In this document: positions 3,305 through 38,003 of the stretch, one piece after another | Layout: the number at the start of each line of letters is the position of its first letter | Numbering within the stretch: position 1 is the stretch's first letter | NCBI RefSeq assembly: GCF_012985225.1 | Contig: NZ_JABEKZ010000024.1 | DNA length: 57,113 bases | From: Corallococcus exiguus | GTDB lineage: Bacteria; Myxococcota; Myxococcia; Myxococcales; Myxococcaceae | Reading direction: 5' to 3' (one strand) | The notes under the pieces: model-generated | What the model was told of the DNA's origin: nothing | Databases searched by the model: none | The model's input: only the letters and a program-made list of their open reading frames with translations | Made by a program: the position numbers and the translations under genes

Positions 3305-4524
3305 CCCCCGAGCAGATGCAGGAGATGGCGAAGTCGCTGGGCCCGCTGGTGGCCGCGCAGTTGGTGGAGCAGTCCAAGGGGCACCGCGACAGCTACGCGG
3401 CCCTGTTGGGCTCCAAGGTGCCCGACGCCGTGCCCGAGGAGCCCCGCCGCTCGCCGATTACTGGCAAGCACATGACGGAAGGCACGGGCCTTAACCTCAT
3501 CCGTTTCGTGAAGGCGAAGGCTGTCGCGCGCATGGAAGGGCGCAACGTGGTGGATGTGCTGAAGAGCTGGGGCGACGAGGTGGTGAGCAAGGCCCTTTCT
3601 CAGGGCAACTACTCGGGCCTGGGCTCGCTGGTGCATCCCCAGTTTGCCTCTGAGTTCATCGAACTGCTGCGCAACAAGGCCGTGGTGCGGCAGGCCGGCG
3701 CCCGCGTCATCCCCATCGGCGCCTCGCTCACCTTCGACCGGCAGTCCAGCACGGGCACGGCCTTCTACGGCGGAGAGACGAGCACCATCCAGGAGTCGGA
3801 GCCGGGCACGGACACGGTGTCCCTGTCCGAGAAGAAGCTCACGGCGCTGACGGCGGTGCCAAACGACCTCATCCGCAATGCGTCCGTCAACGCCGAGGAG
3901 TTCATCCGCAACGACCTGCTGAACGTCATGGCGCTGCGGGAGGGCATGGCCTTCCTGCGGGGCAGCGGGACGCAGCTGGAGCCGCGCGGCATCCGCAACC
4001 AGGTGGACGCGGCCCACGTCTACGCGGAGACGGTGGCCACGGCGGGCGCGCCCACGCTGGGCGAAATGAAGAAGGAGCTGAACAAGGCGAAGAAGAAGCT
4101 GAAAAAGGCCAACGTGCCCATGGTGCAGCCGGTGTGGCTGATGTCCCCCAACGCGGAGACGGCCATTCTCGATGCTCCGGGGCCTGGCGGAGAGGGGACC
4201 AACGCCCTGGAGCGGGAGATGGTGGAGCGCGGCACGCTGCGCAACGTGCCCTTCTTCGTCACGAACCAAATTCCGGAGACGCTCGGCTCGGGCAAGAACT
4301 GCTCGGAGCTCTACCTCGTGGACATGGCCGAGGTGCTTATCGGCGAGTCCATGGCGCTGGAAATCGACGTCTTCCCTAACGGCGCCTTCACGCGTGGCGG
4401 CCAGGTGGTGTCCGGCATCTCCACGGACCAGACGGTGCTGCGCGCCATCACCAAGCATGACCTGGCCATGCGCCACCGGCAGTCCGGCGTCGTGGTGAAG
4501 GACCTGAGCTGGGGCAGCAACTGA
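3301..4524 (+). CDS. Major capsid protein, HK97 fold
   Basis: 407 aa. It follows the protease directly, and its size and sequence pattern fit HK97-family major capsid proteins. Confidence 0.8.
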   Translation: MTPEQMQEMAKSLGPLVAAQLVEQSKGHRDSYAALLGSKVPDAVPEEPRRSPITGKHMTEGTGLNLIRFVKAKAVARMEGRNVVDVLKSWGDEVVSKALSQGNYSGLGSLVHPQFASEFIELLRNKAVVRQAGARVIPIGASLTFDRQSSTGTAFYGGETSTIQESEPGTDTVSLSEKKLTALTAVPNDLIRNASVNAEEFIRNDLLNVMALREGMAFLRGSGTQLEPRGIRNQVDAAHVYAETVATAGAPTLGEMKKELNKAKKKLKKANVPMVQPVWLMSPNAETAILDAPGPGGEGTNALEREMVERGTLRNVPFFVTNQIPETLGSGKNCSELYLVDMAEVLIGESMALEIDVFPNGAFTRGGQVVSGISTDQTVLRAITKHDLAMRHRQSGVVVKDLSWGSN

Positions 4525-4552: not shown

Positions 4553-4987
4553 ATGAGCGCACCGCACATCAGTCAGATCGGCGCCTTCGTTGCAGCTCGC
4601 TTGAGCACGTCGCCCGCCGCGACGCCCGCAGGAACTCGCCAGGGGCAGGGCTATGACCGGCTCATCCTGGGCGAGAGCTGCGTCCTCGTCGCGGCCACGG
4701 GCTCGGTGACGGGCGGCCCCACCGCGCAGGGCTACGAGGTGAAGCTCCAGCACTCCAGCGACAATGGAGTGGATGACGCCTGGACGGACTTCGTGCCGGC
4801 CGGGCCGGGTTCGGCCTCCGTGCAGCTGACGGCGGCGAACGCCTTCATCGAGAAGGACGTGGACCTCGGCGCGGCGAAGCGGTTCGTTCGCGTGGCGGAG
4901 TCCACGACCTTGGCGGGCGGGACTTCGCCCAGCCTTCAGGCGTGCGCCTTCGTCGTCTTCGGTGGCGCCATGACGCTGCCGGTGTGA
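4553..4987 (+). CDS. Hypothetical phage head-associated protein
   Basis: 144-aa ORF with host-like codon usage in the position normally held by decoration or head-completion genes. Confidence 0.4.
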   Translation: MSAPHISQIGAFVAARLSTSPAATPAGTRQGQGYDRLILGESCVLVAATGSVTGGPTAQGYEVKLQHSSDNGVDDAWTDFVPAGPGSASVQLTAANAFIEKDVDLGAAKRFVRVAESTTLAGGTSPSLQACAFVVFGGAMTLPV

Positions 4988-4991
4988 CGCC

Positions 4992-5651
4992 ATGGCGCAT
5001 CCTGCTGACCTGTGCCTGGCTGCGACCGTGGCGGATGACCTGGGCGTGGCGGTGACGCCGCGCCTGGAGTCCCTCGTCACGGCGGCGAGCCGGGCCGTTG
5101 CTGGCTACTGCGGCCGGGTCTTCGAGTACGGCCAGGGCCTCGTGGAGTACCCGGCGGGCTACGGGCGCCCATTGCTGCTGCTGGAGCGCCCGCCCGTTGT
5201 GCTGGTGGTAAGCGTCTGGGAGGGTGGTGCCTTCGTGCCGGCCGAGGAGTACGAGAGCCACGGGAAGCTGGCGGATGCCGGCATGCTGTACCGCAGGCGC
5301 GGTGTGTGGCCGGAGACGGCACGCTCGGGCGGCCTGGTGGTGGAGGCGGTAGACAGCTTCCAGGGCAGCGAGGACAGCATCCGCGTCGTCTACGATGGCG
5401 GCTTCGTGACGCCGGGGCAGCGAGCCCTGGGCGCGTCGCGCGTGGTGACGCTGCCGGAAGACGTGCAGGAGGCCACCGTCCACACGGCGGTGCAGCTGTA
5501 TCGCTCGCGCGGCGTGGACGCCATGGTGGCCAGCGAGTCCATCGGGGATTGGTCCGTGAGCTACTTCGCCGCGAAGACCGAGGGAAAGAGCCCCATCCTT
5601 GACGTCGCGCAGGCGTTGCTCGCGCCCTTCGTCATTCATCGGGTGAGCTGA
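4992..5651 (+). CDS. Head-tail connector protein, gp6-like, with an extra C-terminal region
   Basis: The N-terminal stretch DLCLAATVADDLGV...LVTAASRAVAGYCGRVF fits the gp6-like connector pattern. At 219 aa it is about twice the usual size. Confidence 0.5.
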   Translation: MAHPADLCLAATVADDLGVAVTPRLESLVTAASRAVAGYCGRVFEYGQGLVEYPAGYGRPLLLLERPPVVLVVSVWEGGAFVPAEEYESHGKLADAGMLYRRRGVWPETARSGGLVVEAVDSFQGSEDSIRVVYDGGFVTPGQRALGASRVVTLPEDVQEATVHTAVQLYRSRGVDAMVASESIGDWSVSYFAAKTEGKSPILDVAQALLAPFVIHRVS

Positions 5652-8803: not shown

Positions 8804-8806
8804 GGC

Positions 8807-11488
8807 ATGGCCGGAGGCCTGCGCGTAGGCGACTTGTATGTGGCGGTGACGGCCTCCGTGGGCGAGGCCCTGGCCAACCTCGGCAAGGTGGTGGAGGCCG
8901 TCGAGAAGGCCGCCAAGCAGGTGAAGGAAAAGTCCAAGGGGCTGGGCGAGATTGGCGCGGCGGTGGCGGCGGGGATTGCCGGCGCCGTCGCGGCGGCGTC
9001 CAAGTCCAATGCGGCCATGGAGCGCGAGACGGAGCGGATGACGGCGCTCCTCTACACGCTGGCGGCGGACGTCGGCGACGCCTTCCTGCCGGTGGTGCAG
9101 CACGTCGCGGACGGTGTCGAGCGTGTGGTGGCGAGCTTCCAGTCCCTCTCTCCGGAGATGAAGGCCGCCGCCTCGGACGTGCTCGTGTGGGTGGCTGGGG
9201 CGGGCCTCGCGGCTGGAGCGCTGGGGAAAGTGGCGAACGTTGTGGAAGGCGTGGCCACGGGCGCGGGCGGGCTGGTGAAGGTGCTGGGCCTGCTCAACAA
9301 GTCCGTCGGCCTGGCCTCCCTGGCGACCTCCATGGACAAGGTGACGGCCTCGATGGGCGGCATGGTGGCCAGCACGCCGTCCGTCACTGGCAGCCTGGGA
9401 CGCTTGGCCCTCTCCACCGGAAGCCTGCTGGTGCCGCTCGCGGCGGTGGCCGCTGCCGTGGCGGCGCTGGTGCTGCTGGCGGGTAGCGTCTACGCGGCCT
9501 GGGAGGACAGCAGCACGGGCCTCGCAGACTTCTTCCGGGACTTGGGCGACCAGCTGGCGAAGTGGGCGGGCCGCATCGCGGACGGCTTCTCCCGGGCCTT
9601 CCTGGCGCTGGGTGACTTCGTGAAGGGAGCGGCCCTCTCCGTCCTAGACGGCGTCGCGGCCCTGGTTCGCGGCGTCTCCCGCCTCCTGGAGCCCGTGGCG
9701 CGGCAGGCGGGCTTCCCGGAGCTGGCCGCCACCTTCCGGCAGGTGTCCACCATCACGGGCCGAGAGCTGCTGGAGACGCTGGGGCAGGGCGCCCAGGTGC
9801 TTTGGGATGGCGCGCGGCAGACGGCAGTTGCGGTGGGCGACGCCGTGGCCGGCGCGGGGCGGGAGCTGGAAGAGAGCGTCGCCTACGGCCTGCGCACCAG
9901 TGCGGCGGGTGCGAAGCGGCTCGGGGCGGACCTCGCCCGGGCCCTCAACCTGGAGGGCGTCACGTCGCAGATTCAGGCCCTCCTGGCGAAGCTGGCGGGT
10001 GGGGGTGGGGCACAGGGCAAGGCGCGCATCCGCAAGCCCACGGACAAGGCCGCGCTGGAGGCCGCCCAGAAACAGGAAGCGGCGGAGCAGGCCGCCATGG
10101 CGAAGCTCCAAACCCAGGCCAACGAGGAGTCGCGCAAGGAGTACCTGGCCAGCATCCGCGCGGAGGAGGCCGCCGGCGCCGCCGCATTCCACGAGATGCG
10201 CCTGGAGGCCGAGAGCCTCGCCGCTGAAGCGGAAGCGGCCATGGAAGCCGCGAGGGAGTCGCTGGTGGACCGCTTCATCGGCGGCCTGGGCCAGCTGGGC
10301 GACCTCATCAACGCGGGCATCCAGGGCATGGAGGCAGGCGGTGTCTACGGCGCCATCATCGCCGTGGTGGGCGAGTTGCTCATGCAGTCCGAGGGCTTCA
10401 AGGGCGTCATCGAGTCCGTCAACACGCTCATCCAGAAGGTGGCCGACTCGCTGGGCACACTGCTGGAGCCGCTCCAGCCCCTGCTCAACGCGGTGACGAT
10501 GGTGGTGGACGGCTTTCTCTCCGCCCTGACACCCGTCTTCGAGATGCTGGGGGAGGCGATTGAACCGCTGGTGCCGCCGCTGGTGATGCTGGGCGACATC
10601 GTGAAGGGCCTGGCGCCCCTTTTCGAGGTGCTGGGCCGCACCTTCCTGCTGATTCAGCAGCCGCTCAGCATCCTGGGCGGGCCCATCATGAAGGCCCTTT
10701 TCACGGCGCTGAAGTTCGTCGGCAGCGTCGTCCTCACCATCGCGAAGGCCATCAGCGAAGTCTGGAATGCCGTCATCGGCGCGGTGCAGACCGTCATCCG
10801 CGCCATCTCCAGCCTCATCGACTGGACGGGCTTCGACGGGCTGAAGAAGTTCGCGCGCTCGCTCAACAAGCTGAAGGTGGACACCGACAGCATGGACGAC
10901 TCCCTGCGCGTGCTGGAGGACACGACGTGGGACTCGGCGAAGGCGCGTGCCGAGGAAACCGCCCAGGTGGAGGAGCACACGGAGGCCGTGGCCCGCGCGA
11001 CGGCAGCACTCACCAACGTGCCGACCGCGTGGAAGGTGGCGCTGCGCCGCTTCGAGTCCGAGGACACGCAGGACGGCCCCACGGTGCCGCCCAAGCCGAA
11101 GCCCACGCCCGGGTCCGACGACAACGACGAGGCGGAGGCATCTGACGGCCCCACCTCGCCCAGCGGGCCAGTGCCGGGTTGGCTCTTCGGCATGTTCCCG
11201 CCCGAGCTCCAGCAAATCCTCTTGGGGCAGGTGCCCGCGATGCCTGCGGCGCCGGGTTGGTTCGGCAGCTACCTGCCTCCTGGCTTCAGCGGAGGAGGGC
11301 AGGTGCGTGCGCCCGAGGCGGGCAACGTCTCCGCCATGGCCGCGCCCGTCACCTACAACATCACCGGCTACGACATCGACGCCGCCATGGAAGCGACGCG
11401 GCGGGACGAGTCGCTGCGCCAGCAGCGTGCGAGCATCCGCGTTGCTGGCAGCCGCGTGCGCCTCACGGCGCGCTTCTCTGGCTCTTGA
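8807..11488 (+). CDS. Tail tape measure protein
   Basis: 893 aa. It is Ala/Gly/Leu-rich and strongly helical, with long coiled-coil stretches, and sits after the G/GT pair. Confidence 0.8.
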   Translation: MAGGLRVGDLYVAVTASVGEALANLGKVVEAVEKAAKQVKEKSKGLGEIGAAVAAGIAGAVAAASKSNAAMERETERMTALLYTLAADVGDAFLPVVQHVADGVERVVASFQSLSPEMKAAASDVLVWVAGAGLAAGALGKVANVVEGVATGAGGLVKVLGLLNKSVGLASLATSMDKVTASMGGMVASTPSVTGSLGRLALSTGSLLVPLAAVAAAVAALVLLAGSVYAAWEDSSTGLADFFRDLGDQLAKWAGRIADGFSRAFLALGDFVKGAALSVLDGVAALVRGVSRLLEPVARQAGFPELAATFRQVSTITGRELLETLGQGAQVLWDGARQTAVAVGDAVAGAGRELEESVAYGLRTSAAGAKRLGADLARALNLEGVTSQIQALLAKLAGGGGAQGKARIRKPTDKAALEAAQKQEAAEQAAMAKLQTQANEESRKEYLASIRAEEAAGAAAFHEMRLEAESLAAEAEAAMEAARESLVDRFIGGLGQLGDLINAGIQGMEAGGVYGAIIAVVGELLMQSEGFKGVIESVNTLIQKVADSLGTLLEPLQPLLNAVTMVVDGFLSALTPVFEMLGEAIEPLVPPLVMLGDIVKGLAPLFEVLGRTFLLIQQPLSILGGPIMKALFTALKFVGSVVLTIAKAISEVWNAVIGAVQTVIRAISSLIDWTGFDGLKKFARSLNKLKVDTDSMDDSLRVLEDTTWDSAKARAEETAQVEEHTEAVARATAALTNVPTAWKVALRRFESEDTQDGPTVPPKPKPTPGSDDNDEAEASDGPTSPSGPVPGWLFGMFPPELQQILLGQVPAMPAAPGWFGSYLPPGFSGGGQVRAPEAGNVSAMAAPVTYNITGYDIDAAMEATRRDESLRQQRASIRVAGSRVRLTARFSGS

Positions 11489-12315: not shown

Positions 12316-12318
12316 CGC

Positions 12319-14721
12319 ATGCGGCCCCTCTCTTCCTTCCAGGCGGCCCTGCTGGGCAGCCCTTCCGGCTACTCCACCCACCCGCGCGTCTGGGTACGCG
12401 ACGCGGCAGGGGCGTGGCGCGGCCTGCACACCCTCCTGGGCTTTGACTGGGTGCTGGGCGTGCGCATCAACGACAAGATGGACGCGCCCGTGGCCGAAGC
12501 GGAGGTGTCGCTGGTGCGCAGCGGCGCCGCTGGAGCACGCCTCTCCCTCTCGCCCCTGGTGGTGCAGTCCCTCGCCAACACCTCCGACGCGGGCACCTTC
12601 GCGCCGCTGCTGGTGGAGGGCGCCTATTTCCGCGTGGAGCTGGGCCTCGCGCCGCTCGCCACCGCGCCGAAAGAGGCGGACTACTTCGAGGTCTTCCGGG
12701 GCCGCATCGATGAGGTGGACGCCGGGCCCGACGAGCTGCGCGTCGTAGGCCGCGACTTGGGCGGGCTGCTGCAGGACACCTTCATCGAGGTGGAGCGCGA
12801 ATACGGCAATGACACGGTGGGCGTGGCCGTGCAGACCATCATCCAGGCGCTGTTGGACGACAACGGCCTCGCCCCCTTCGCACTCTTCACGCCTGTGGAC
12901 CCCATGTCCCAGCGCGGCCGGTACGTGCAGAAAGTGGAGCCGGTGCTGGATGCGGCGCGCACCCTAGCTCAGCGGATTGGCTGGGACTGCCGCATGCGCT
13001 GGCAGCCTGCCGCGAGCGCCTACGCGCTGACGCTCTCCGCGCCCAACCGCCTCCAGACGGAGGAAGACTGGAGCTATGGCCCGGACGAGTACGGCAACCT
13101 CGATGGTGTGACGCGGCAGTTGGCGGACATCCGCACGGACGTAGAGGTCGTCTACAGCGACAAGTTTGACTTGGATGCCTCGGGCACGCCGAATCGAAAG
13201 ACGGTGACGGCCAGCAACCCCACGGCTCGGGCCCAGGTGGGCCGCCGCTGGATGCAGGTAGCGGAGGAGTCCTCCAGCAACATCGACACGCAGGCCGAAG
13301 CCCAGCGACTCGCGGACGCGGCCATCGCGGACCTCTCCGTCTCGCCTCTCACTGTCACCATGGCGGTGGACCCTCACCCCGGCCTGGAGCTGGCGGACCT
13401 GGTGCTCGTGCTGCCGGACGGCGTGCGCCTCGACACGGCGCAGCGGCTCGCGGTGCAAGAGCTGGAGCACCAGTGCGCGACGGATGGCACCGCGCGCATG
13501 AAGCTGGTGCTGCGTGGCCAGCCCTCCACGTCGCTGCGTGAGTGGCTGGAGCGCGACAGCCGGCCGGGCATCGCCCCCAGCGCAACCTTCACGGGCCCGG
13601 CCGCGCCGCAGGAGGTGCGGGCGACGCCGACCGTAAATGGATGCTTGGTGACGTGGACCCCCGCGACTACCGGCCCGGCCTGGGACGAGTACGAGGTGCA
13701 CGCGTCTCGAACGCCGGGCTTCCAGCCCTCGGAGGCCACCTTCCAGGGGAGGGCGTCTGCGACGCGCTTCCTGCTTTCCGAGTTGCGTCCCGGCGCCACC
13801 TACTACTGCCGGGTGGTGGGCCGCGACGCCACGGGCAACCTGGGCGCGCCATCCGCCGAGGTGTCAGTCACCACGGCCTACGTGACACCCGCCACGTTGC
13901 AGCCCGCCGTGGCCTTCGGGGAGTCGCCACCCAACCCCGACTTCGAGGCGCACTCGTTCGAGGAGCTGCCGCCGGACGCCTGGACGATGGGCGCTGGACT
14001 CTGGGGTGCGCACGCTCAGGTGACGGCGGACGCGTACACGGGCGCGCGAGCTGTCCGGCTGGTGGCGAGCGGCACGCGGCTGGACTCCCAGGCGATGATT
14101 GCGCGGCCAGGTGACAGGTACAGCGTGGATGCCCTGGCAAGAGCGTCGCAGACAGGGACGGCATTCTCCGTCCAACTTGTCTGGTACGGCGGCGCCTTCA
14201 ACGTGTTGGGTACGGTGAGCACGACGAAGGTGCTTCCGACGAGCGACTGGGCGCCATTCACCGGCTTCCACAACGCGCCTGCCGGGACGCGCTACGTCCA
14301 GGTGCGCCTGCTGGCCCAGGCGACGCAAGGCGCGCCGTGGGTGTACGTCGATTCGGTGCGCTTGGACCGCATTGGCGGCCTCGTCGAGCCGTGGACGGCC
14401 ATTCGCACCGGGCAGATTAGCGACCTGGAGAATGGCTGGGTGGCGTGGGATGCCTCCAACTGGCCCCTGGGCTTCTACAAGAACAGCGACAACGAGGTGT
14501 CCGCACGCGGCCTCATCCGCCCTGGGACGGTGGGCTACGTGAACGCGTACCGCTTCCCGGTGGGCTACCGGGCCAGCTCCAACCGCATCCTGTCACTGCC
14601 GACGAGCCACGGCTTCGCCATGGGGCAGCTCAACGTGGATGGGGGCCTCCAGGTCTTCAGCATGCCCACGGGCGCGGCCTGGGTGAGCCTCGACGGAGTG
14701 CGATTCCGCGCGGAAGGGTGA
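12319..14721 (+). CDS. Tail fibre / host-specificity protein with a fibronectin type III domain
   Basis: 800 aa. An FN3-like segment (...VTWTPATTGPAWDEYEVHASRTPGF...LRPGATYYCRVVGRDATGNLGAPS) is followed by a C-terminal domain that looks like a carbohydrate-binding domain. Confidence 0.55.
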   Translation: MRPLSSFQAALLGSPSGYSTHPRVWVRDAAGAWRGLHTLLGFDWVLGVRINDKMDAPVAEAEVSLVRSGAAGARLSLSPLVVQSLANTSDAGTFAPLLVEGAYFRVELGLAPLATAPKEADYFEVFRGRIDEVDAGPDELRVVGRDLGGLLQDTFIEVEREYGNDTVGVAVQTIIQALLDDNGLAPFALFTPVDPMSQRGRYVQKVEPVLDAARTLAQRIGWDCRMRWQPAASAYALTLSAPNRLQTEEDWSYGPDEYGNLDGVTRQLADIRTDVEVVYSDKFDLDASGTPNRKTVTASNPTARAQVGRRWMQVAEESSSNIDTQAEAQRLADAAIADLSVSPLTVTMAVDPHPGLELADLVLVLPDGVRLDTAQRLAVQELEHQCATDGTARMKLVLRGQPSTSLREWLERDSRPGIAPSATFTGPAAPQEVRATPTVNGCLVTWTPATTGPAWDEYEVHASRTPGFQPSEATFQGRASATRFLLSELRPGATYYCRVVGRDATGNLGAPSAEVSVTTAYVTPATLQPAVAFGESPPNPDFEAHSFEELPPDAWTMGAGLWGAHAQVTADAYTGARAVRLVASGTRLDSQAMIARPGDRYSVDALARASQTGTAFSVQLVWYGGAFNVLGTVSTTKVLPTSDWAPFTGFHNAPAGTRYVQVRLLAQATQGAPWVYVDSVRLDRIGGLVEPWTAIRTGQISDLENGWVAWDASNWPLGFYKNSDNEVSARGLIRPGTVGYVNAYRFPVGYRASSNRILSLPTSHGFAMGQLNVDGGLQVFSMPTGAAWVSLDGVRFRAEG

Positions 14722-16172: not shown

Positions 16173-16271
16173 TGACTCTTTAGGGTCCGTGATTGTGGAC
16201 TTTAAAAGTCAACTGCGCTCAAACTCCTAGGGAGGCGCCGCCGCGCCTTCTCTCCCGCCTCCCGAGGAGCC

Positions 16272-17441
16272 ATGCCCGACACGACAACTGACGACCTGGC
16301 GCGCACCGAAGCCTCCGCGCTCCGCAGGCAGCTTCCGCCGACGCCTGAGAGGCCGCTGCACCTATTCACCATCGACGGCATCCGCTACGAGGCCGTCCGC
16401 GAACTGGTGCTGATGGAGACGGGTGAGGTGCTGATGCTGGCCCATCGCTTCTCAGAGCGCGGCAACAAGCTGGCCGGCCATTGCTTCGTGCGGCGGCTGG
16501 CGAACCCCTCCACCTTCATGCAGCGCACGCGGCTGGGGGAGGAGATTCAGCTGGCCTTCCGTCTGCGCCACCCGGCCATCGCCACCGTGTTTCACCGCAA
16601 GGTGCACAAGGGCGCGCTGCACGCCGTCATGGAGTACGTGGACGGCCCCTCGCTGGAGACGCTGGTGAGTGCGGGTGTTGCGCGCGGCCGGCCCGTCTCC
16701 GAGGCCTTCGCCCTCTACGTCGGCGCGGAACTCGCGGAGGCCCTGCATCACGCACACACGCTGACGGACGCGGACGGCAAGGCGCTGGGCGTCATCCACC
16801 GCGACGTCAACCCCCGGCACGTCTACGTGGGGACGCAGGGCGAGGTGAAGCTGACGAACTTCGGCGCGGCGTACTCGCTGGTGGTGGGGCGCGAGGAGTC
16901 GCCCGCGAGCCTCGTGCGTGGCGACGTGGCGTATGCCTCGCCGGAGTACCTGACGCGGCAGCCGCTTTCGCCTCGCTCTGACGTCTTCAGCCTGGGCGTG
17001 CTGCTGGTGGAACTCTTCACCGGCAAGCACCTCTTCGACGTGGAGGACGTGCCGCGCCCGCTCAAAGGCATGGTCCGCCTCCAGCCCGAAATCCTCCCTT
17101 CGCTGCCGCTCACGCAGATGCAGGTGCTGCTGGACAGCTTTGGGCCGGAGGACGTCGAGGAGGCCGTGGCCTCACTCTCTCCGGACGTGAAGGCCATGCT
17201 GCATGTCGCGTTGCGCGCCAAACCCGAGGGGCGATTCGCCACGGCGGCGGACATGCGCGATGCGATGCGCGTTGCCCTGGCGAGGCGGCACCCTGGCTAC
17301 GGCCGGCAGGAAGCCGCAGCGGAATGGGCCCAGGTGCTGGCGGAGGGCAGCGTCCTTCGCGATGAGGTGGAGTTCGGCGAGGAGCGCTTCTTCCCCGAGG
17401 GGCTGGAGGCTCACGAGTTGGAGGGCTTGAAGCGGGAGTAG
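16272..17441 (+). CDS. Ser/Thr protein kinase-like protein, predicted pseudokinase
   Basis: Kinase fold with HRDVNPRH and APE-like SPEYL. The VAIK lysine is missing (FVRRL), DFG is replaced by NFG, the catalytic-loop Asn is His, and the Gly loop is degenerate. Confidence 0.6.
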   Translation: MPDTTTDDLARTEASALRRQLPPTPERPLHLFTIDGIRYEAVRELVLMETGEVLMLAHRFSERGNKLAGHCFVRRLANPSTFMQRTRLGEEIQLAFRLRHPAIATVFHRKVHKGALHAVMEYVDGPSLETLVSAGVARGRPVSEAFALYVGAELAEALHHAHTLTDADGKALGVIHRDVNPRHVYVGTQGEVKLTNFGAAYSLVVGREESPASLVRGDVAYASPEYLTRQPLSPRSDVFSLGVLLVELFTGKHLFDVEDVPRPLKGMVRLQPEILPSLPLTQMQVLLDSFGPEDVEEAVASLSPDVKAMLHVALRAKPEGRFATAADMRDAMRVALARRHPGYGRQEAAAEWAQVLAEGSVLRDEVEFGEERFFPEGLEAHELEGLKRE

Positions 17442-21303: not shown

Positions 21304-21402
21304 TGGCGGTAGGGCACGGGAATCGAACTCGCCAGGGACTGCTCTCGCAGCCCCTCACCGGTTTTGAAGACCGGGCCGGCCACCAGGTCCGGAGGCCCTA
21401 CC
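21304..21402 (-). tRNA. selC: tRNA-Sec (selC), anticodon UCA
   Basis: Hand fold of the minus strand gives an 8-bp acceptor stem (GGTAGGGC/GCCCTACC), G73, an encoded CCA, a 7-nt anticodon loop cTTCAaa, a long variable arm (8-bp stem plus GAGA loop) and a T arm (G-TTCGATT-C). This is the bacterial 8/5 Sec geometry. Confidence 0.55.
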
Positions 21403-28695: not shown

Positions 28696-28747
28696 CCGGC
28701 CCCGGTGGGCTCCGCGAAAGCGGGGCGCCCGGGGCCGGAGTCTTTTT
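28696..28747. terminator. Bidirectional rho-independent terminator between groEL and the convergent histidine kinase gene
   Basis: GC-rich hairpin CCGGCCCCGG...CCGGGGCCGG followed by AGTCTTTTT. Confidence 0.55.
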
Positions 28748-30276
28748 CAGGAAGCGGTCTTCTTGAAGGCCAGGCCCAGCTCGCGGCTGAGCGCCGTGGT
28801 GTCGGAGAGCAGCTTGGGCAGGCACGCGGCGGCCCCGGCGCGCAGCGACGCCAGCGCCGTGTCCATGGTGAGGTGCTCGGCCAGGACGACGAAGGGCGCG
28901 CCCTGGCTCAGGGCCCGGGCCAGCTCCAGCGCCTTCTTGCCGTAGGCCGGCGCGAAGTCCCAAGACACCACCACGCCCACGGGCGGATCCATGGTGGCCA
29001 CCTCCGCGCCCGCGACGACGCGCGCCTCCAGGCCCAGCAGCGTCAGCGCCTCTGAAATCAGCCGCGCGGTGGCCGGGTTGTCCTCCAGCACGTCCACCCG
29101 GCGCACGCCAGCGCTGGGGGCGGGGACAGGCGGCGCGGCCGGCGTGTACAGCGCCTGCCGCAGCAGCGCGCGCACCTGTCGGATGTCGTCGAAGGGCTTG
29201 AGCAGGTAGTCCACCAGGCCCAGCTGCAGCGCCTGCTGCGTCGTCACCAGCGAGGGGTAGCCCGTCATCAGGATGACGCGCGACGCGGGGTCCAGCTTCC
29301 TCGCGTGCTGGGCCAGCTCCAGGCCGGAGATTCCGGGCAGGTTCTTGTCCGTGACGATGAGGTCCACGCGCGACGAGCGGAGGATTTCGAGCGCGGCCTC
29401 GCCCGTGGCCGCTTCAATGACTTCGCACTCCTTGTCCATCAGGTCCTTGAAGACCATCCGGATGATGCCCTCGTCGTCCACCACCAGCAGGCGCTTGCGC
29501 GGCGGGCGCGGCGCGTCCGTGGGCGGGAAGAGCACGCGGAACACCGTGGCCGGGGGCGGCACCTCGCGCAGCGTCGTGGGCGGCACCAGGGCAACCTGCG
29601 CGTGGTGCTCCTGCGCGATGCGACGACAGACGGCGAGCCCCAGGCCCGTGCCGCGTTTGCTGGCGGAGACGTAGGGCTCGAAGATGCGCGTCTTCAGCTC
29701 GTCCGGGATGCCCGGTCCCCAGTCGGAAACGTAGAGGGCCGCGGAGGCGCCATCGCGCGTGAGCGTCACCTTCACGCGGCCCCGGCCGGACATGGCGTCG
29801 CGGGCGTTGTTGAGCAGGTTGAGCGTGAGCTGCTCAATCAGCCGCGCGTTGCCCTGGATGGTGAGGTCCTCGGGGGCCTCCACCTCCAGCGAGATGCGCG
29901 CCGAGTCCGGGTTGACGCTGAACACCTTCGCCGCCGCCCAGATGGGCGCGGCCAGGGACAGCCGCTGCTGCGGGGCCGGCCGCTCGCTGGCCAGGCGGAT
30001 GAAGTCGGAGACAATCTGCTCCATCCGCTCCACCTGCGCGAGCAGCAGCTTCAGCGGGCCGCTGGAGCCTCCTTCCTCGGCCAGCAGCTGGGCGTAGGCC
30101 TTCGCGCCCAGGAGGGGCTGACGCAGCTCATGGAGGACCTCCGCGGCGACCTGATGGGTATGGGCGTTGGCGCGTTGCAGCGCCACGGCCGCGACCCGTG
30201 CCTTCTCCAGGTCCCCCGCGTCCAGGGCCTGGAGCAGCTGCGCGAGCGGCGAGGGGGTCTCCATGCACGGGAGCAT
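28747..30276 (-). CDS. Hybrid sensor histidine kinase / response regulator (HisKA, HATPase, receiver, and a second receiver-like domain)
   Basis: The H-box is LHELRQPL. N/G-box-like segments follow (NLLNNARDA, DWGPGIP, GTGLGLAV). The receiver is ...LLVVDDEGIIRMVFKDLMD...LIVTDKNLPGISG. Confidence 0.75.
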   Translation of the reverse strand: MLPCMETPSPLAQLLQALDAGDLEKARVAAVALQRANAHTHQVAAEVLHELRQPLLGAKAYAQLLAEEGGSSGPLKLLLAQVERMEQIVSDFIRLASERPAPQQRLSLAAPIWAAAKVFSVNPDSARISLEVEAPEDLTIQGNARLIEQLTLNLLNNARDAMSGRGRVKVTLTRDGASAALYVSDWGPGIPDELKTRIFEPYVSASKRGTGLGLAVCRRIAQEHHAQVALVPPTTLREVPPPATVFRVLFPPTDAPRPPRKRLLVVDDEGIIRMVFKDLMDKECEVIEAATGEAALEILRSSRVDLIVTDKNLPGISGLELAQHARKLDPASRVILMTGYPSLVTTQQALQLGLVDYLLKPFDDIRQVRALLRQALYTPAAPPVPAPSAGVRRVDVLEDNPATARLISEALTLLGLEARVVAGAEVATMDPPVGVVVSWDFAPAYGKKALELARALSQGAPFVVLAEHLTMDTALASLRAGAAACLPKLLSDTTALSRELGLAFKKTAS

Positions 30277-30432
30277 GGCGGAGGCAGGTGTTCACGCGCA
30301 ACGCACCCCCAGCGGGATTCGGTTGACCGCGCTCGCGACCGAACGGATGCTCGCGCACGTCCTCCAGCCCGGCCTGACGGAACGTCGTTGCCCGCTCGCT
30401 TGCTGGAAACCCTCCCTGTCGCTGAGGTCCTC

Positions 30433-30822
30433 ATGCCGCAGACGAACCCGTTCCACTCGCTGGTGCCCCGGAAGCTGACGGACTCCGAACTGGCCCGCTC
30501 CATCCGGCTCAACATCGAGGCGGAGCTGGACGCCATCAACCTCTACGCCGCGCACCTGGACGCGACGGACAACGAGGAGGCGAAGGCCATCCTGCGGCAC
30601 GTCATGGACGAGGAGCGCGAGCACGCGGCCCTCTTCTGGCAGCTCATCGCGCGGTTGGATCCGGAGCAGGCCCAGCACGACCGCGAGGCGTCGCAGAAGT
30701 ACCGCCTCATCACCACCGGCGCGTCTCACGAAGAGGTGGAGGCGGTGGGCGAGGGCGGCGGCGGCGTGCCCGCGGAAGTGGAGCTGCCCAAGCACCTCAC
30801 CGTGGGCAGCCTGCGCAAGTAG
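30433..30822 (+). CDS. encC: Ferritin-like / rubrerythrin-type encapsulin cargo protein (EncC-like) with a C-terminal targeting peptide
   Basis: 129 aa. Diiron-type ExxH motifs (IEAELDAINLYAAH, EEREHAALF). The C-terminal ...PKHLTVGSLRK resembles the family-1 encapsulin cargo-loading peptide of the M. xanthus EncB/C/D type. No encapsulin shell gene lies within the window. Confidence 0.55.
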   Translation: MPQTNPFHSLVPRKLTDSELARSIRLNIEAELDAINLYAAHLDATDNEEAKAILRHVMDEEREHAALFWQLIARLDPEQAQHDREASQKYRLITTGASHEEVEAVGEGGGGVPAEVELPKHLTVGSLRK

Positions 30823-30836
30823 CGCGCGTCCGGCGT

Positions 30837-32225
30837 TCAGCCCTGGCCCTGCGGGGGCGGGGGATTCTGACGGCGCTCGGCCGGGGTGGCTTCCAGGTCC
30901 TGCGCCGCCATGTAGACGACGTTCCGGGTGCCGCGCTTGCCCCGGTACATGGCCCGGTCGGACAGGTCCAGCAGGTGGTCCTTGTCCTGGGCATGCTCCG
31001 GGAAGCTGGCCACGCCGATGCAGGTGGTGAGCTTGAGCGCCAGCCCCTCGCGGCCCAGGAACTGATGGGTCTCCATGGTGCGGCGGATGCGCTCGGCGAC
31101 CTTGAGGGCCCCGCCGGAGTCCGTGCCGCGCAGGAGCACCACGTACTCGTCGCCGCCGAAGCGCGCCACCACGTCCGGGTCGCGCACGCAGCCCTTGAGC
31201 ACGCGCGCGGCCTCCACCAGCACCCGCGAGCCCACCAGGTGCCCGTGCGTGTCGTTGATGGCCTTGAAGCGGTCCAGGTCCAGGAACAGCAGGGAGAAGG
31301 GGCGCTCCGTCTGGAGGGCCTCGTTCACCTCGCGGTCCAGCACCAGGTGCAGGTAGCGCGTGTTGAACAGGCGGGTGAGATCATCGACGTAGGCCAGGTC
31401 CTCCACGGCGGCGAAGCGGCCCAGGTTGCGCAGGGCCAGCGCCCAGTTGCGCACGAGGAAGCCCACGGTCTCCGCGTGGTGCTCCGCGGGCGCGTTGTCG
31501 TGGAAGAGCACCGCGTGGCCCAGCACCAGCTCGCCGTCCACGGCGGGGAAGGAGAGGGTGCGCGGCCAGGGAACTTGAAGTCCGTCGAGCTCCACCTGCG
31601 TGCGCGTGCCCGAAAGCCGCTCGATGAGCAGCGGGACGAGCGCCTCGTGCAGGTCCACCGGCAGCCCGCGCATGCCGTGCGAGCGGAAGCCCGTGCCGCC
31701 AGGGTCCCGCTCCAGGAGCATCACCGCGGAGGCGTTGGCCATGGACTCCAGCGCGTCGGACGCGGCCGTGGACAGCCGCTCGCGGTCGAGCGTGGTGGCG
31801 ATGCGCTGGCCCGCCTCCAGCAGCGCGACGTGCTGGCGCAGGGACGCGTTCTCACGCATCAGGTCGCGCGTGGTGAGCGCGCGGCGCAGCGCGTGCTCCA
31901 GGGCCTCCGGCGCCACGGGCTTGACCAGGTACTCCGCCGCGCCGCTCTTGATGGCGCGCACCGCGGGGGCCACCTTGTCCAGGCCGGTGATGACCAGCAC
32001 CTCCACGCCGGGGTAGCGCTCGCGCACGTGGCGAAGCACCTCCATGCCGTCGCCGCCGGGGAGGATGAGGTCCGTCACCACCGCGTCGAACCGCGCCGCG
32101 GAGAGTGCGGCCTTCGCGTCCGCCACGGTGGGCACCGCCGTGACCAGGTGTCCCGCGGCCGTGAGGTAGTCGCCGTAGAGATTGCGGGCGATCTTTTCGT
32201 CGTCGACGAGGAGCAGTCGCGCCAT
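30837..32225 (-). CDS. Response regulator with receiver, GAF-like and GGDEF (diguanylate cyclase) domains
   Basis: The receiver is LLLVDDEKIARNLYGDYL...VVTDLILPGGDG. The GGDEF active-site motif is RFGGDEYVVLL. Confidence 0.75.
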   Translation of the reverse strand: MARLLLVDDEKIARNLYGDYLTAAGHLVTAVPTVADAKAALSAARFDAVVTDLILPGGDGMEVLRHVRERYPGVEVLVITGLDKVAPAVRAIKSGAAEYLVKPVAPEALEHALRRALTTRDLMRENASLRQHVALLEAGQRIATTLDRERLSTAASDALESMANASAVMLLERDPGGTGFRSHGMRGLPVDLHEALVPLLIERLSGTRTQVELDGLQVPWPRTLSFPAVDGELVLGHAVLFHDNAPAEHHAETVGFLVRNWALALRNLGRFAAVEDLAYVDDLTRLFNTRYLHLVLDREVNEALQTERPFSLLFLDLDRFKAINDTHGHLVGSRVLVEAARVLKGCVRDPDVVARFGGDEYVVLLRGTDSGGALKVAERIRRTMETHQFLGREGLALKLTTCIGVASFPEHAQDKDHLLDLSDRAMYRGKRGTRNVVYMAAQDLEATPAERRQNPPPPQGQG

Positions 32226-33090
32226 GACTGTTCAGGGCTTAGCACCCAACGCTGGAAGGCTGCTAGGGTCCCGGGCCGTGCCCTTTGAAAGCGGACGGCG
32301 GCTCTGCCTGCTGGTGGAGGCCGGAGAGACGCGCTACGCGGTGGAGGCCACCTCCGTCATCGAGGTCGCGATGCCGGGCGCTCGCGGCGCGAGTCTGCGC
32401 GGCGTACTGGAAGTGAAGGACCTCGCCGCGTTGCTCGGCGGCCTGCCTGAGGAAGTGCCGGGCATGGTGGTGGTCCTGGACGTCAGCCCCACGCTCGCGG
32501 TGCGGGTGCGCGCCGTGGTGGAGGTCGCGGACGTCGCGAGGGATCCGTTCTTCCTGCTGCCTCCGGGACTGGCGGACTCGCTGGCGCCGCTGAGCCGGGG
32601 CGCGGTGCTGCACAAGGACCGGCTGTACCTGGAGCTCATCGTGGAGGCGCTGCCGCACCGGGCGGGCCCCCGGGCGACCCCGCCAGAGCCCCGGCCCGTG
32701 CACTATGCGGACGAGCCCCCTGAGCGGGCGCTGGTGCTGGAGTCCCAGGGGGTGCTGTTCGGCGTCCCGCTGGGTTGCGTCTCCCAGGTGGTACCCCGGG
32801 GCGAGGCGTTCAGCGTCCTCCCGGTGCAGAGCGGGCCGGTGGCGGGCGTCTATCCCCACGCGCAGGCGCTATGGCCCATCTGTTCGATTCCAGCGCTGCT
32901 GGGTGCGCCGGCCCAGGCGGAGGAGTTGTTCGTCCTCACGGAAATGGCGGGGCGGAACGTGGGGCTGGCGGCCAACCGGGTGCTGGGTGTGCTGCAGAAG
33001 TTCAAGCCGGCCGAGCTTCCCGGAACGTTCCGGGCGCCGGGGCTGCCGGATCCGGTGATGTTACTGGACCTGCAGCGCATGTTTTCTTGA
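32224..33090 (+). CDS. CheW-like domain protein, probably two CheW-like modules
   Basis: The pattern RLCLLVEAGETRYAVEATSVIEV... recurs in the second half (ALVLESQGVLFGVPLGCVSQVV). The start is uncertain; ATG 32224 overlaps the divergent start at 32225. Confidence 0.5.
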   Translation: MTVQGLAPNAGRLLGSRAVPFESGRRLCLLVEAGETRYAVEATSVIEVAMPGARGASLRGVLEVKDLAALLGGLPEEVPGMVVVLDVSPTLAVRVRAVVEVADVARDPFFLLPPGLADSLAPLSRGAVLHKDRLYLELIVEALPHRAGPRATPPEPRPVHYADEPPERALVLESQGVLFGVPLGCVSQVVPRGEAFSVLPVQSGPVAGVYPHAQALWPICSIPALLGAPAQAEELFVLTEMAGRNVGLAANRVLGVLQKFKPAELPGTFRAPGLPDPVMLLDLQRMFS

Positions 33091-33207: not shown

Positions 33208-34470
33208 ATGCCCAAGAATCTACTGATCGCCGACGACTCGCTCACCATCCGCAAGGTGATCGGGATGATCTTCGCGACGGAAGACTTCCAGGTGACCGCG
33301 GTGGACAACGGGCTGGACGCCATCTCCCGCACGCGCGAGCTGCGTCCGGACGTGGTGCTCGCCGACGTGATGATGCCGGGCAAGAGCGGCTACGAGGTCT
33401 GCGAGGCGCTCAAGGGCGACCCCTCCACGCAGGCCATCCCGGTGCTGCTGCTCGCCGGCACCTTCGAGGCGTTCGACGAGAACCGCGCGAAGGCCGCCCG
33501 GGCGGATGACCACATCACCAAGCCCTTCGAGAGCCAGATCCTCCTCGACAAGGTGAAGGCGCTGGTGGGCCAGAAGTCCAACACGATGCCCGCGTCCGCC
33601 GCGACGCGCATTCTGCCCCAGACCTCCGCCCCGAGCGCTCCAGTCAGCGCGCCGCCCGCCGCCGCCGTGCCGCCGGGTGCGCGTCCCGCGGGTGCGCCGC
33701 CTCCGGGCGCCATGCCGCCGGGTGCGCGTCCTCCTCCGGGTGCCGTGCCTCCGGGCGCGCGTCCTCCGGGCGCTGGTGTGCCTCCTCCTCCGGGTGCGGC
33801 GCGTCCGCTGCCGGGCGCTGTTCCTCCGGGCGCGCGTCCTCCGGGTGCGCCGCCTCCGGGCGCCATGCCGCCGGGTGCACGTCCTCCGCCGGGTGCGCCG
33901 CCTCCGGGCATGGGCGCGCGTCCTCCGGGTGCGCCGCCTCCGGGCGCCATGCCGCCGGGTGCGCGTCCTCCTCCGGGTGCCGTGCCTCCGGGCGCGCGTC
34001 CTCCGGGTGCGCCGCCTCCGGGCATGGCCGCGCGTCCTCCGGGCCCTGGCGCCCCGAACATCCCGGGCGGCTTCCCGCGTCCTCCGGGCGCCGCGCCGCT
34101 GCCGTCCGCGCCCCCGCCCGCCGCGGTGCCTCCGGCCGCCCGTGCCCGGGATCCGTTCGGGCTGGGCGCTCCGGCCGCCCCGCCCGCGGCGCAGGCCCGC
34201 ACGGAGAGCATCCGCATCGAGGACTCGCTGCCCGAGCCCAGCGGCGCGGAGGAGATCTCCCTGGACATCGGCGGCCCCTCGCCGGCGACTCCGCCCGCGC
34301 GCGCCCGTCCGGCCGCGGATGGCGGAGAGGCGCTGCTGCGCGAGGCGCTGTCGAAGGCGTCCCGCGAGGTCATCGAGAAGATTGCCTGGGAGGTCGTTCC
34401 GCAGCTGGCGGAGACCATCATCCGGGAAGAGCTGGAGCGGCTCATCAAGGACCGCGAGACCCAGCATTGA
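33208..34470 (+). CDS. romR: RomR-like polarity/motility response regulator: receiver domain, long Pro-rich repeat linker and conserved C-terminal helical region
   Basis: Starting at MPKNLLIADDS gives 420 aa, the length I recall for RomR. There are about 20 degenerate PGARPPGAPPPGAMP repeats, and the C-terminus is ...EVIEKIAWEVVPQLAETIIREELERLIKDRE. Confidence 0.55.
   Translation: MPKNLLIADDSLTIRKVIGMIFATEDFQVTAVDNGLDAISRTRELRPDVVLADVMMPGKSGYEVCEALKGDPSTQAIPVLLLAGTFEAFDENRAKAARADDHITKPFESQILLDKVKALVGQKSNTMPASAATRILPQTSAPSAPVSAPPAAAVPPGARPAGAPPPGAMPPGARPPPGAVPPGARPPGAGVPPPPGAARPLPGAVPPGARPPGAPPPGAMPPGARPPPGAPPPGMGARPPGAPPPGAMPPGARPPPGAVPPGARPPGAPPPGMAARPPGPGAPNIPGGFPRPPGAAPLPSAPPPAAVPPAARARDPFGLGAPAAPPAAQARTESIRIEDSLPEPSGAEEISLDIGGPSPATPPARARPAADGGEALLREALSKASREVIEKIAWEVVPQLAETIIREELERLIKDRETQH
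33655..34075 (+). repeat. Tandem degenerate ~45-nt repeats encoding the Pro/Gly/Ala-rich linker
   Basis: Repeated ccgggtgcgcgtcctccgggtgcgccgcctccgggcgccatgccg units are visible directly in the sequence. Confidence 0.7.
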
Positions 34471-34523: not shown

Positions 34524-37500
34524 ATGACTGACACGACTGAACTGTCCAAGGCCTACGAGCCCTCCGAAGTGGAGGCGCGGTGGTACAACCACTGGCTGGA
34601 GCGCGACTACTTCCGCGCCGAAGCCCCTTCCTCCAAGCCGCCGTTCAGCATCGTGCTGCCGCCGCCCAACGTGACGGGCAGCCTGCACATCGGCCACGCG
34701 CTCACCGCGACCATCCAGGACATCCTCACGCGCTGGAAGCGGATGAGCGGCTTCAACGCGCTCTGGCTGCCCGGCACGGACCACGCGGGCATCGCCACGC
34801 AGATGGTGGTGGAGAAGGAGCTCAAGAAGACGGAGGGCAAGAGCCGCCACGACCTGGGCCGCGAGGCGTTCCTCGAGCGCGTCTGGACGTGGAAGGGCAA
34901 GTTCGGCGCGCGCATCGGTGAGCAGCACCGCTACCTGGGCGCGTCCCTGGACTGGAGCCGCGAGCGCTTCACCATGGACGAGCAGTCCTCGGCCGCGGTG
35001 CGCGAGGTGTTCGTCCGGCTGTACGAAGAGGGCCTGATGTACCGGGCCCAGAAGCTGATCAACTGGTGCCCGTCCTGCCGCACGGCCCTCTCCGACCTGG
35101 AAGTGGAGCACGAGGAGAAGAACGGCTCGCTCTGGCACATCCGCTACCCGGTGAAGGGCACGGAGCGCTTCCTCACCGTGGCGACGACGCGCCCGGAGAC
35201 GCTGCTGGGCGACACGGCCGTCGCCGTGCACCCGGAGGATCCGCGCTACCAGGACCTCATCGGCAAGCGCGTGGCGCTGCCGCTCACCGACCGTGAGATT
35301 CCGGTCATCGCGGACGGCGAGCTGGTGAACATGGAGTTCGGCACCGGCGTGGTGAAGGTCACGCCCGCGCACGACTTCAACGACTACCAGACGGGCCTGC
35401 GCCACAAGCTGCCGATGCTGTCCATCCTGGACGAAGCGGCGCGGATGACGAAGGACACCGGCAAGTACGCGGGCCTGGAGAGCCGGGAGGCGCGCACGCA
35501 GGTGCTGGCGGACCTGACGGAGCTGGGCCTGCTGGAGAAGGAGGAGCCGCACAAGCTGAACGTGGGCACCTGCCAGCGCTGCACCACGGTGGTGGAGCCG
35601 CGCCTGTCGCCGCAGTGGTTCATCAAGATCGAACCCCTGGCGAAGCCGGCCATCCAGGCCGTGGAGGAGGGCCGCACCAAGTTCGTCCCCGAGTCGTGGA
35701 CGAACACGTACTTCCACTGGATGAACAACATCCACGACTGGTGCGTGAGCCGCCAGCTGTGGTGGGGCCACCAGATTCCGGCGTGGTACTGCGCGGCGTG
35801 CACCCCGGCGGAAGAGCGCTCGAAGGACACGGCGGACGTCATCGTGTCGCGCACGGCGCCGGAGTCCTGCCCGAAGTGCGGCGGCAAGGAGCTGACGCAG
35901 GATCCGGACGTGCTGGACACCTGGTTCTCGTCCGCGCTGTGGCCGTTCTCCACGCTGGGCTGGCCGAAGCAGACGGCGGACCTCCAGACCTTCTACCCGA
36001 CGTCCGTGATGGAGACGGGCCACGACATCATCTTCTTCTGGGTCGCCCGGATGATGATGATGGGCCTGCATTTCATGAACGACGTGCCCTTCCGCACCGT
36101 GTACCTGCACGCGATGGTGCGCGACGAGAAGGGCGAGAAGATGTCCAAGACGAAGGGGAACGTCATCGATCCCCTGGACGTCATCCTCGGCGCGAAGGCG
36201 GAGTCGCTGCAGCCGTCCTTGCGCAACCGCTTCCCGCAGGGCATGCCCGCGCACGGCGCGGACGCGCTGCGCTTCACGTTGGCGTCGCTCACGCAGCAGG
36301 GCCGTGACATCAAGCTGTCGATGGACCGCCTGGGTGGCTACAAGGCGTTCTGCAACAAGCTGTGGAACGCCAGCCGCTTCGCCCTGATGAACATGGGCGA
36401 CTTCAGCCTGGACAAGACGCCGCTGGAGGGCCGCAAGCTGACGCTGGCGGACCGGTGGATCCTCTCCCGCCTGCAGAAGGCCACCGAGGAGACGCGCGCG
36501 TCGCTGGAGGCGTTCGGCTTCGCGGAGGCCGCGTCCACGCTGTACCAGTTCCTGTGGGCGGAGTTCTGCGATTGGTACATCGAGCTGGCGAAGGGCTCGT
36601 TGTACGGCGACGACGCGGAGGCCAAGGACACCACGCGCGCGGTGCTGGTGACGTGCCTGGACCGCATCCTGCGGCTGATGCACCCGTTCATGCCGTTCAT
36701 CACCGAGGAGATCTGGCAGAAGCTGCCGATGTCCCGGCCCACGGAGAGCATCTGCATCGCGGCCTACCCGGCGCCGGAGACGGCGTGGGTGGACGCGGCC
36801 GCGGAAGGCGAGATGGCGCCGGTCATCGCGGCCATCGAGGGCCTGCGCACGCTGCGCGGCGAGAGCAACCTGCCGCCGTCCGCCAAGGTGAAGGCGGTGG
36901 TGCAGAGCCCGGACGCGACGACGCGCGAGCTGTTGGAGCGTTGGCGCGCGTACCTGATGCCGCTCGCGGGCCTGTCCGAGGTGGTGGTGGGCCCCCCGGG
37001 CGCCAAGCCTCCGCAGGCGGCGGCGTTCGTGAGCGGCAACCTGGAAATCTACGTGCCCCTGGCGGGCCTGGTGGACCTGGACGCGGAGCGCGACCGCCTG
37101 AAGAAGGAGATCGTCCGCGCCGAGCAGGAACTCGCCGGTTTGCAGCGCAAGCTGGACAACCCGAACTTCGTGGCCCGTGCTCCGCCGGACGTGGTGGAGA
37201 AGGACAAGGCCCGGGTGGCGGAGCTCCAGGAGCGCACGGTCAAGCTGCAGGATCACCTCCAGCGCATCGCCCCGGAGCCCCCCATGTCCGAGACGCCGTC
37301 GCCGTTGCCGGGCAGCACCGAGTCCGAAGCCCCTGAAGCGTCCGAGTCCCTCGCGCCTGAGAGCGCCCAGGTGAAGGTGGCCACCGAGCCGCAGGCACCG
37401 AAGGACGAAGCGGTGAACCTGGGCCAGGAGCTGAAGGGCGAGATTGAAGCCGAAGAGGCTTCGCAGGCGCCCCAGGCCGCGGATCCGATGGTGGAGGAGG

Positions 37501-38003
37501 CCCTCAACAAGCTGCGCGAGGGCACCAAGGAAGGGCTGTCCCCGGCGGACCACCACGACCTGGGCGTCGCGTACATGAGCATGGGCCTCGTGGACGACGC
37601 GATGCGCGAGTTCGACCGGGCCAAGGAGGGCGGCGACGCCCGCGAGGCGCCGGAGGGCTCGGCGAAGCCGGTGAAGAAGGCTCCGACGAAGAAGGCCTCC
37701 GCGAAGAAGGCGGCGGTGAAGAAGGCCCCTGCGAAGAAGGCCTCCGCGAAGAAGGCGGCGGTGAAGAAGGCCTCCGCGAAGAAGGCGGCGAGCAAGAAGT
37801 CCGCCGCGAAGAAGGCCCCTGCGAAGAAGGCTTCCGCGAAGAAGGCAGCGGGCAAGAAGACGGCCGCGAAGAAGGCGGCGGTGAAGAAGGCTCCTGCGAA
37901 GAAGGCTTCGGCGAAGAAGGCGGCGGGGAAGAAGACCGCCGCGAAGAAGGCCGCGGCGAAGAAGACCACTCGGGGCAAGCCGGCTCGCAAGGCGCGCCGG
38001 TAG
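34524..38003 (+). CDS. valS: Valyl-tRNA synthetase with a ~240-aa C-terminal extension ending in a Lys/Ala-rich histone-H1-like tail
   Basis: HIGH ([14 protein letters not shown]) and KMSKS (KMSKTKGN) motifs, editing domain and coiled-coil anticodon-arm domain. The ORF then continues through an acidic linker and a TPR-like helix into about 17 AKKA-type repeats ([17 protein letters not shown]...) before the stop at 38003. Confidence 0.9.
37668..37962 (+). repeat. Tandem 27/54-nt repeats (gcgaagaaggc...), the coding repeat behind the KA-rich tail
   Basis: Near-identical direct repeats are visible in the nucleotide sequence. Confidence 0.7.

Follow-up and report, generated by a model that had tools for sequence, protein, structure and literature searches.

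The encapsulin cargo gene encC of Corallococcus, an orthologue of Myxococcus xanthus MXAN_4464, and its chromosomal surroundings

The window, i.e., the whole stretch of 57,113 nucleotides of Corallococcus exiguus DNA that was analysed, comprises a gene (30433..30822, plus strand) whose 129-aa product is, as judged by its sequence, the Corallococcus orthologue of EncC (MXAN_4464) of Myxococcus xanthus. The explanation that best accounts for the data, and which we consider very probable, is that of an encapsulated two-helix ferritin packaged by its C-terminal LTVGSLRK into the EncA shell and oxidising iron. The system is already known: the protein is an orthologue of one characterised structurally and biochemically, and it is encoded in the same genomic context. 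The studies establishing M. xanthus EncC reportedly include McHugh 2014 and Eren 2022. The structure of EncC, its targeting peptide, its packaging in EncA, and the distal location of its gene have all been established in M. xanthus (PMC11126975, PMC10402063).

The encC gene and its ferritin-like product

The encC reading frame begins with the ATG at 30433 and ends with the TAG at 30820-30822; its assignment draws on the translation, PDB chain 7s8t_A, Pfam and NCBIfam models, and dN/dS values. A Shine-Dalgarno sequence, GAGG (30424..30427, plus strand), can be read 5 nt upstream of the ATG, and GAGG or GGAG is retained at this position in most orthologous encC loci. Among all PDB chains, the best match of the protein is M. 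xanthus EncC (7s8t_A), to which it aligns over its full length with E=1.8e-64 and ca. 85% identity. The match to M. xanthus EncB (E=1.7e-06) is confined to the core helices, as are other weak matches, to the encapsulated ferritins of Pyrococcus and Rhodospirillum (Rru_A0973), and the NCBIfam EncB 'exception' model, whose cut-off is 210 bits, gives only 28. Both the best PDB match and the conserved chromosomal context thus identify the protein as EncC and not EncB. Pairwise comparison of encC with its counterparts in six species gave dN/dS values of 0.16-0.37, indicating purifying selection. The original prediction of a 129-aa ferritin-like protein, in particular an encapsulated ferritin of the EncC type that carries a targeting peptide for family-1 shells, is therefore borne out by the translation, the 7s8t_A match, and the family models.

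A search with models of the encapsulated-ferritin and rubrerythrin families, recommended in the same prediction, placed the protein above the cut-offs of two curated families, EncFtn-like of Pfam (PF22277, 36.6 bits, gathering cut-off 27) and EncB_fam of NCBIfam (NF058679, 'EncB family encapsulin nanocompartment ferritin-like cargo protein', 111.9 bits, cut-off 90, model positions 1-117 of 117). Current NCBIfam models thus recognise the Corallococcus EncC. Two further Pfam families, COQ7 (25.5 bits, 57 of 169 profile positions) and Rubrerythrin (26 bits), give partial matches, spanning ca. 57-63 residues, i.e., half of a four-helix bundle. The public NCBI names of the identical protein are 'ferritin' or 'demethoxyubiquinone hydroxylase family protein', the latter owing to the partial COQ7 match, and for EncC such database names are misleading. 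The same two matches and the hydroxylase name could be taken to favour a free cytosolic di-iron protein, rubrerythrin-like or a COQ7-like hydroxylase, that is no encapsulin cargo, as could the absence of a shell gene from the window and from 6 kb around encC in all 66 loci compared (see below). However, these two matches extend over no more than those ca. 57-63 residues, and the core of the protein consists of two helices only, as in EncFtn. Its targeting peptide is kept across families although the linker drifts, and the M. xanthus orthologue has been physically found in encapsulins and resolved bound to EncA, both of which speak against a cytosolic protein. We regard this alternative as extremely unlikely and retain the assignment to the encapsulated ferritins.

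The ferroxidase centre, located by alignment within 30523..30624 (plus strand), comprises E31 (30523-30525), Y38 (30544-30546), and the EXXH motif E61-R-E-H64 (30613-30624), so that both the glutamate of helix 1 and the EXXH ligands of helix 2 are present. In EncB and EncC, EXXH has been described as the ferroxidase motif (PMC11126975, PMC9321382). The ferroxidase residues are identical to those of EncC in the 7S8T structure, and E31, Y38, E61, and H64 are invariant in an alignment of 59 complete orthologues from Corallococcus, Myxococcus, Pyxidicoccus, Citreicoccus, Hyalangium, Vitiosangium, Archangium, and metagenome-assembled genomes.

Targeting peptide and the EncA shell

The core is followed by a flexible linker rich in Gly, Ala, and Glu (approximately residues 100-121; 30730..30795, plus strand), the least conserved segment of the protein, and by the C-terminal targeting peptide LTVGSLRK (30796..30819, plus strand), recognised by a motif scan, by its conservation in the orthologues, and by its agreement with the published LTVGSLR; the protein ends in ...ELPKHLTVGSLRK. 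A scan of the whole window in six frames for [LFM][TS][VI]G[STNG][LMF] found a single site, two residues before the encC stop codon. The last eight residues are thus of the type used by family-1 encapsulin cargo, as originally proposed. Among the 59 orthologues the linker varies in both length and sequence (mean identity to the window protein of 0.56 over residues 102-119 versus 0.90 for the core), and nearly all complete orthologues end in LTVG[SN][LM]R[RK]. A conserved core, a variable linker, and a conserved C-terminal LTVGSLR[RK] form the signature expected of a tethered cargo enzyme.

[quoted passage not shown] A SNAP-tag was loaded into EncA by the EncC peptide PEKRLTVGSLRR alone (PMC10402063), and co-expression of EncA and EncC gave loaded particles by co-assembly (PMC9321382). 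The Corallococcus peptide differs from that of M. xanthus (KHLTVGSLRK versus KRLTVGSLRR) in the terminal lysine in place of arginine and in the histidine in place of arginine at position -9. The terminal lysine is a genus-level variant, found in all the Corallococcus orthologues examined (...LRK), and a conservative change that retains the positive charge; EncD tolerates even a glycine at the terminal position (PMC11126975).

The window itself contains no sequence resembling EncA detectable by tblastn (best E=7.8) with a query identical to PDB chain 4pt2_P, in agreement with the original statement that no shell gene lies nearby. All 66 orthologous loci likewise lack encA within 6 kb of encC, so that encC and the shell gene are, as a rule, separate in this clade. 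The window does comprise an HK97-type capsid gene (2914..4524), considered as a possible source of a shell for EncC and rejected, being a strain-specific prophage gene dissimilar to EncA.

An EncA-type shell gene, whose presence elsewhere in the genome the original prediction had proposed to check, is found in sister strains; the lack of a shell gene, named there as a refutation, is thus not seen in these strains. The identical 129-aa EncC is encoded in Corallococcus assemblies and recorded under Corallococcus names (C. sp. AB004, 'MULTISPECIES Corallococcus'). Two of these assemblies, GCA_006376655.1 and GCA_003986945.1, each encode both the exact EncC of the window and P0151, a 290-aa protein named 'EncA [Corallococcus]'. 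P0151 shares 96% identity with the shell protein of M. xanthus, has D39, D214, and Y217 unchanged, and passes the NCBIfam model encap_f1 with 288 bits. Its gene lies on contig RAWO01000002.1, whose length of 1,290,592 bp is also that of the longest contig on record for the identical EncC. The locus of the closest relative is 99.5% identical to the window, and we infer from the sister strains that the window's own genome likewise encodes EncA. Co-occurrence with the shell gene, together with sequence identity, motifs, and conservation, is what is directly established for Corallococcus.

The Corallococcus EncB orthologue (162 aa; L073:5449-5937 in the encB-encA locus L073) is encoded directly upstream of encA, scores 267 bits with the NCBIfam EncB model, and carries the peptide PLTIGSLRR near its C-terminus. 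Directly downstream of encB-encA, on the same strand, lies a gene coding for an enhancer-binding protein with receiver, sigma-54-activator, and HTH_8 domains (L073:6898-8322; equivalents in L074-L082), a more plausible candidate for a regulator of the encapsulin genes than those flanking encC. The description of encC as a secondary cargo locus holds for the location of the gene and fails for abundance, EncC being the most abundant native cargo in M. xanthus, at 52% (PMC10402063).

By homology to M. xanthus, whose experiments are the source for the decamer, packaging, ferroxidase activity, and physiological role, the Corallococcus protein would act as follows. Two-helix EncC monomers would pair in antiparallel orientation, each chain contributing E31, E61, and H64 to a di-iron ferroxidase centre, and five such dimers would form a decameric ring. 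The disordered Gly/Ala/Glu linker bearing LTVGSLRK would tether the decamer. During shell assembly the peptide would dock in hydrophobic pockets on the lumenal side of EncA, with the basic residues at its end pairing with D39, D214, and Y217. EncA would be supplied from the encB-encA operon elsewhere in the genome, and its T=3 shell would also take up EncB and the ferric reductase EncD. Within the shell, EncC would oxidise Fe2+ to Fe3+, which would be mineralised in the lumen, and such iron storage may limit Fenton chemistry in starvation and under oxidative stress.

Neighbouring genes and the candidate promoter

The encC gene lies in a block of nine genes coding, in order, for a zincin-like protein, a 118-aa response regulator, GroEL, a hybrid histidine kinase, EncC, a receiver-GGDEF protein, a CheW-like protein, a receiver protein with a Pro-rich region, and ValS. 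Almost all of the 66 loci are collinear over this block of 12 kb, which includes groEL and valS. The gene order agrees with that of the romR locus of M. xanthus, which comprises MXAN_4460 (ValS), MXAN_4461 (RomR), MXAN_4462 (a double-CheW protein), and MXAN_4463 (a receiver-GGDEF protein) (PMC2034494), and MXAN_4465 is hpk30 (eLife 2019 supplement). The window gene at 28747..30276 (minus strand), an orthologue of hpk30 by Pfam domains and synteny, codes for a kinase of 509 aa with HisKA, HATPase_c, and receiver domains, in which Pfam detected no recognisable sensor domain. It is divergent from encC across an intergenic region of 156 bp (30277..30432, from the gene coordinates), just as had been noted. 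The kinase-encC-GGDEF order is found in most of the 66 loci (Corallococcus, Myxococcus, Pyxidicoccus, Hyalangium, Archangium, and Vitiosangium); among the loci with sufficient upstream flank, L052, L058, L067, L069, and L071 lack the kinase, and in L052, L069, and L071 the gene immediately preceding encC is groEL.

Several features of the remaining genes of the block were also noted. The double-CheW orthologue (MXAN_4462) occupies 32224..33090 (plus strand); its annotated start overlaps that of the divergent gacA gene by 2 nt in related assemblies, and since a shorter start call giving 270 aa also exists, the start is uncertain. The RomR orthologue (MXAN_4461; 33208..34470, plus strand) comprises a receiver domain, Pro-rich repeats, and a Glu-rich tail. 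ValS (34524..38003, plus strand) carries a Lys/Ala-rich C-terminal tail of ca. 150 aa with AKKAA repeats, resembling histone H1/HC2, and the length of the tail is strain-dependent (proteins of 1159-1165 aa).

The receiver-GGDEF gene (30837..32225, minus strand) is the orthologue of GacA (MXAN_4463) according to its Pfam domains, its match to 6d9m, and the literature. In calling encC followed by a GGDEF response regulator, the original prediction was right about the adjacency and about the receiver and GGDEF domains; the gene, however, is on the minus strand and convergent with encC, with 14 bp between the two stop codons, not co-directional. The product, identical in many assemblies of the C. 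exiguus group, has as its best PDB match 6d9m, the Hypr GGDEF domain of the Geobacter GacA type, with which it shares GHLVGS where PleD has GHDIGD. Its GGDEF motif reads GGDEY, so that the protein combines a receiver domain, the Hypr signature serine, and GGDEF rather than GGEEF. The signature of Hypr GGDEF domains is a serine (Ser348 in GacA) in place of the guanine-reading aspartate (PMC6456294), and MXAN_4463 has been named MxGacA, a GMP-AMP cyclase (10.1101/600031). The 6d9m match, the signature serine, and the naming of MxGacA make the neighbour probably a 3',3'-cGAMP synthase rather than a diguanylate cyclase. The label of a c-di-GMP cluster is hence probably wrong, and the neighbouring gene is better read as coding for a cGAMP (Hypr) than a c-di-GMP enzyme.

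The intergenic region contains a conserved promoter-like element on the encC strand, TTGACC-N17-GATGCT (30323..30351, plus strand), with a predicted transcription start near 30358; its function is deduced from cross-species conservation alone. Of 66 orthologous upstream regions (species-level loci; equivalents in L007-L072), 61 contain TTGACC-N17/18-GATGCT on the encC strand, against 0.025 occurrences expected from shuffled sequences and none on the opposite strand. The two hexamers are kept, and what lies between them varies in sequence, as does their distance from the ATG. GATGCT is a poor match to the sigma-70 -10 consensus, yet nearly invariant, which may indicate the use of a specific sigma factor. 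The element emerged from the cross-species comparison alone, as a generic scan of 30150-30950 revealed neither a terminator nor a canonical sigma-70 promoter. The leader of encC contains no riboswitch or other Rfam family, such as cGAMP/GEMM, at either gathering or permissive thresholds. A loosely similar sequence, TTGACG-N17-GAGGGT, is situated upstream of encB in L073. A 9-mer shared by the upstream regions of encC and encB-encA, GGAAACCCT, was considered as a regulatory motif and rejected as due to chance because the closest Corallococcus species lack it upstream of encC.

Conservation of the element with a drifting spacer, and its retention in L052, where the kinase is missing, argue for an autonomous monocistronic transcript, and encC is most likely transcribed alone from this candidate promoter. 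The element thus offers a candidate promoter for studying how expression of a distal cargo gene is matched to that of its shell.

The original prediction placed the loading of iron-storage cargo under the same regulation as the signalling module. For such control of encC expression or cargo loading by the divergent kinase, the GGDEF response regulator, or both speak the retention of the kinase-encC-GGDEF order in most of the 66 loci, the short divergent intergenic region common to kinase and encC, and the persistence of the encC-gacA adjacency in deep lineages without the kinase (L052 and L071). The whole block from the zincin-like gene to valS is collinear, however, and since it includes housekeeping genes, the adjacency of kinase, encC, and GGDEF genes is not specific. 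Moreover, the kinase is absent from the five loci named above, which keep encC, and the promoter-like element persists in L052; Pfam finds a DNA-binding output domain in neither neighbour of encC, the GGDEF gene is convergent with encC, and the encC leader is devoid of an Rfam riboswitch. In the developmental RNA-seq data for M. xanthus (eLife 2019 supplement; values for the neighbours of encC and for encB), MXAN_4465 is flat, MXAN_4463 constitutive, and encB developmentally regulated. A preprint from the Hammond laboratory treats GacA as an orphan receiver (10.1101/600031). With a promoter-like element of its own, a kinase missing from some encC-keeping lineages, and generic synteny, co-regulation is unsupported, and we consider it very unlikely; autonomous transcription of encC remains the preferred reading.

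The encC-gacA adjacency is intriguing because in Geobacter GacA and cGAMP control Fe(III) oxide respiration (PMC6456294). One could imagine that this long-conserved adjacency, joined in most lineages by the hybrid kinase, reflects a functional link, a fraction of the di-iron EncC protein providing an iron or redox input to the kinase/cGAMP pathway or cGAMP signalling tuning iron mineralisation; we consider such a link very unlikely.

Outside the encC block, the first ca. 17,500 nucleotides of the window are occupied by a siphovirus-like prophage structural module with genes for a portal (119..1168), a head-tail adaptor (4974..5651), a tape measure (8804..11488), and a tail protein (12316..14721), as well as a Ser/Thr kinase gene (16206..17441), and G+C content in this stretch falls to 0.53. 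A tRNA-Sec gene (Rfam, 70.5 bits) is located at 21308..21402 on the minus strand, and related Corallococcus strains align to the window only from 21281/21304 onward, i.e., at tRNA-Sec; the prophage stretch looks like a strain-specific island adjoining this gene. Downstream of valS lies a gene for a 758-aa bacterial homologue of the eukaryotic major vault protein, MVP (39579..41855, plus strand), containing Vault repeats as well as the MVP shoulder domain (152 bits); it is followed by a gene for an HmuY-like protein (41941..42975). The MVP homologue is present in sister strains L001-L003 and L005, and other genes take its place in L004; bacterial MVP homologues have been described before (bioRxiv 10.1101/872010). 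A LysM protein (45675..47393, plus strand) carries a C-terminal, peptidoglycan-hydrolase domain resembling that of the type VI secretion protein VgrG3 (181 bits).

Comparison with known encapsulated ferritins

The closest known system is EncC of M. xanthus (MXAN_4464, Q1D3Y8), a protein of 130 aa of the FLP-TP class (PMC11202242). At 129 aa the Corallococcus protein belongs to the same length class, and the two have in common the EXXH ferroxidase motif and the LTVGSLR core of the targeting peptide. Both encC genes are detached from the encB-encA operon and have the same neighbours, hpk30, gacA, double-cheW, romR, and valS. Apart from the two substitutions in the peptide mentioned above, the proteins differ in the sequence of the linker.

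EncB of M. xanthus (MXAN_3557, PDB 7S5C) shares with the window protein the EncFtn fold family and the NCBIfam EncB_fam subfamily; it is loaded into the same shell as EncC by a targeting peptide of the same type. The two are nevertheless distant paralogues, similar in the core helices only. EncB, of 158-162 aa, has a long linker rich in Pro and Ala, its chain continues beyond the peptide in a Gly/Ser tail, and its gene, unlike encC, lies directly upstream of encA.

More distant are the EncFtn proteins of Rhodospirillum rubrum (Rru_A0973, 5DA5) and Haliangium ochraceum (5N5F), to which the similarity of the window protein amounts to ca. E=2e-07 over 60 residues. These are likewise two-helix encapsulated ferritins, and by homology the Glu/Glu/His ferroxidase centre at the dimer interface, the decameric ring, and the C-terminal targeting peptide would be common to all of them. 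They differ from EncC in the peptide, which is SLGIGSLK instead of LTVGSLRK, and in gene location—their genes adjoin that of a T=1 shell, whereas encC is situated away from its shell gene.
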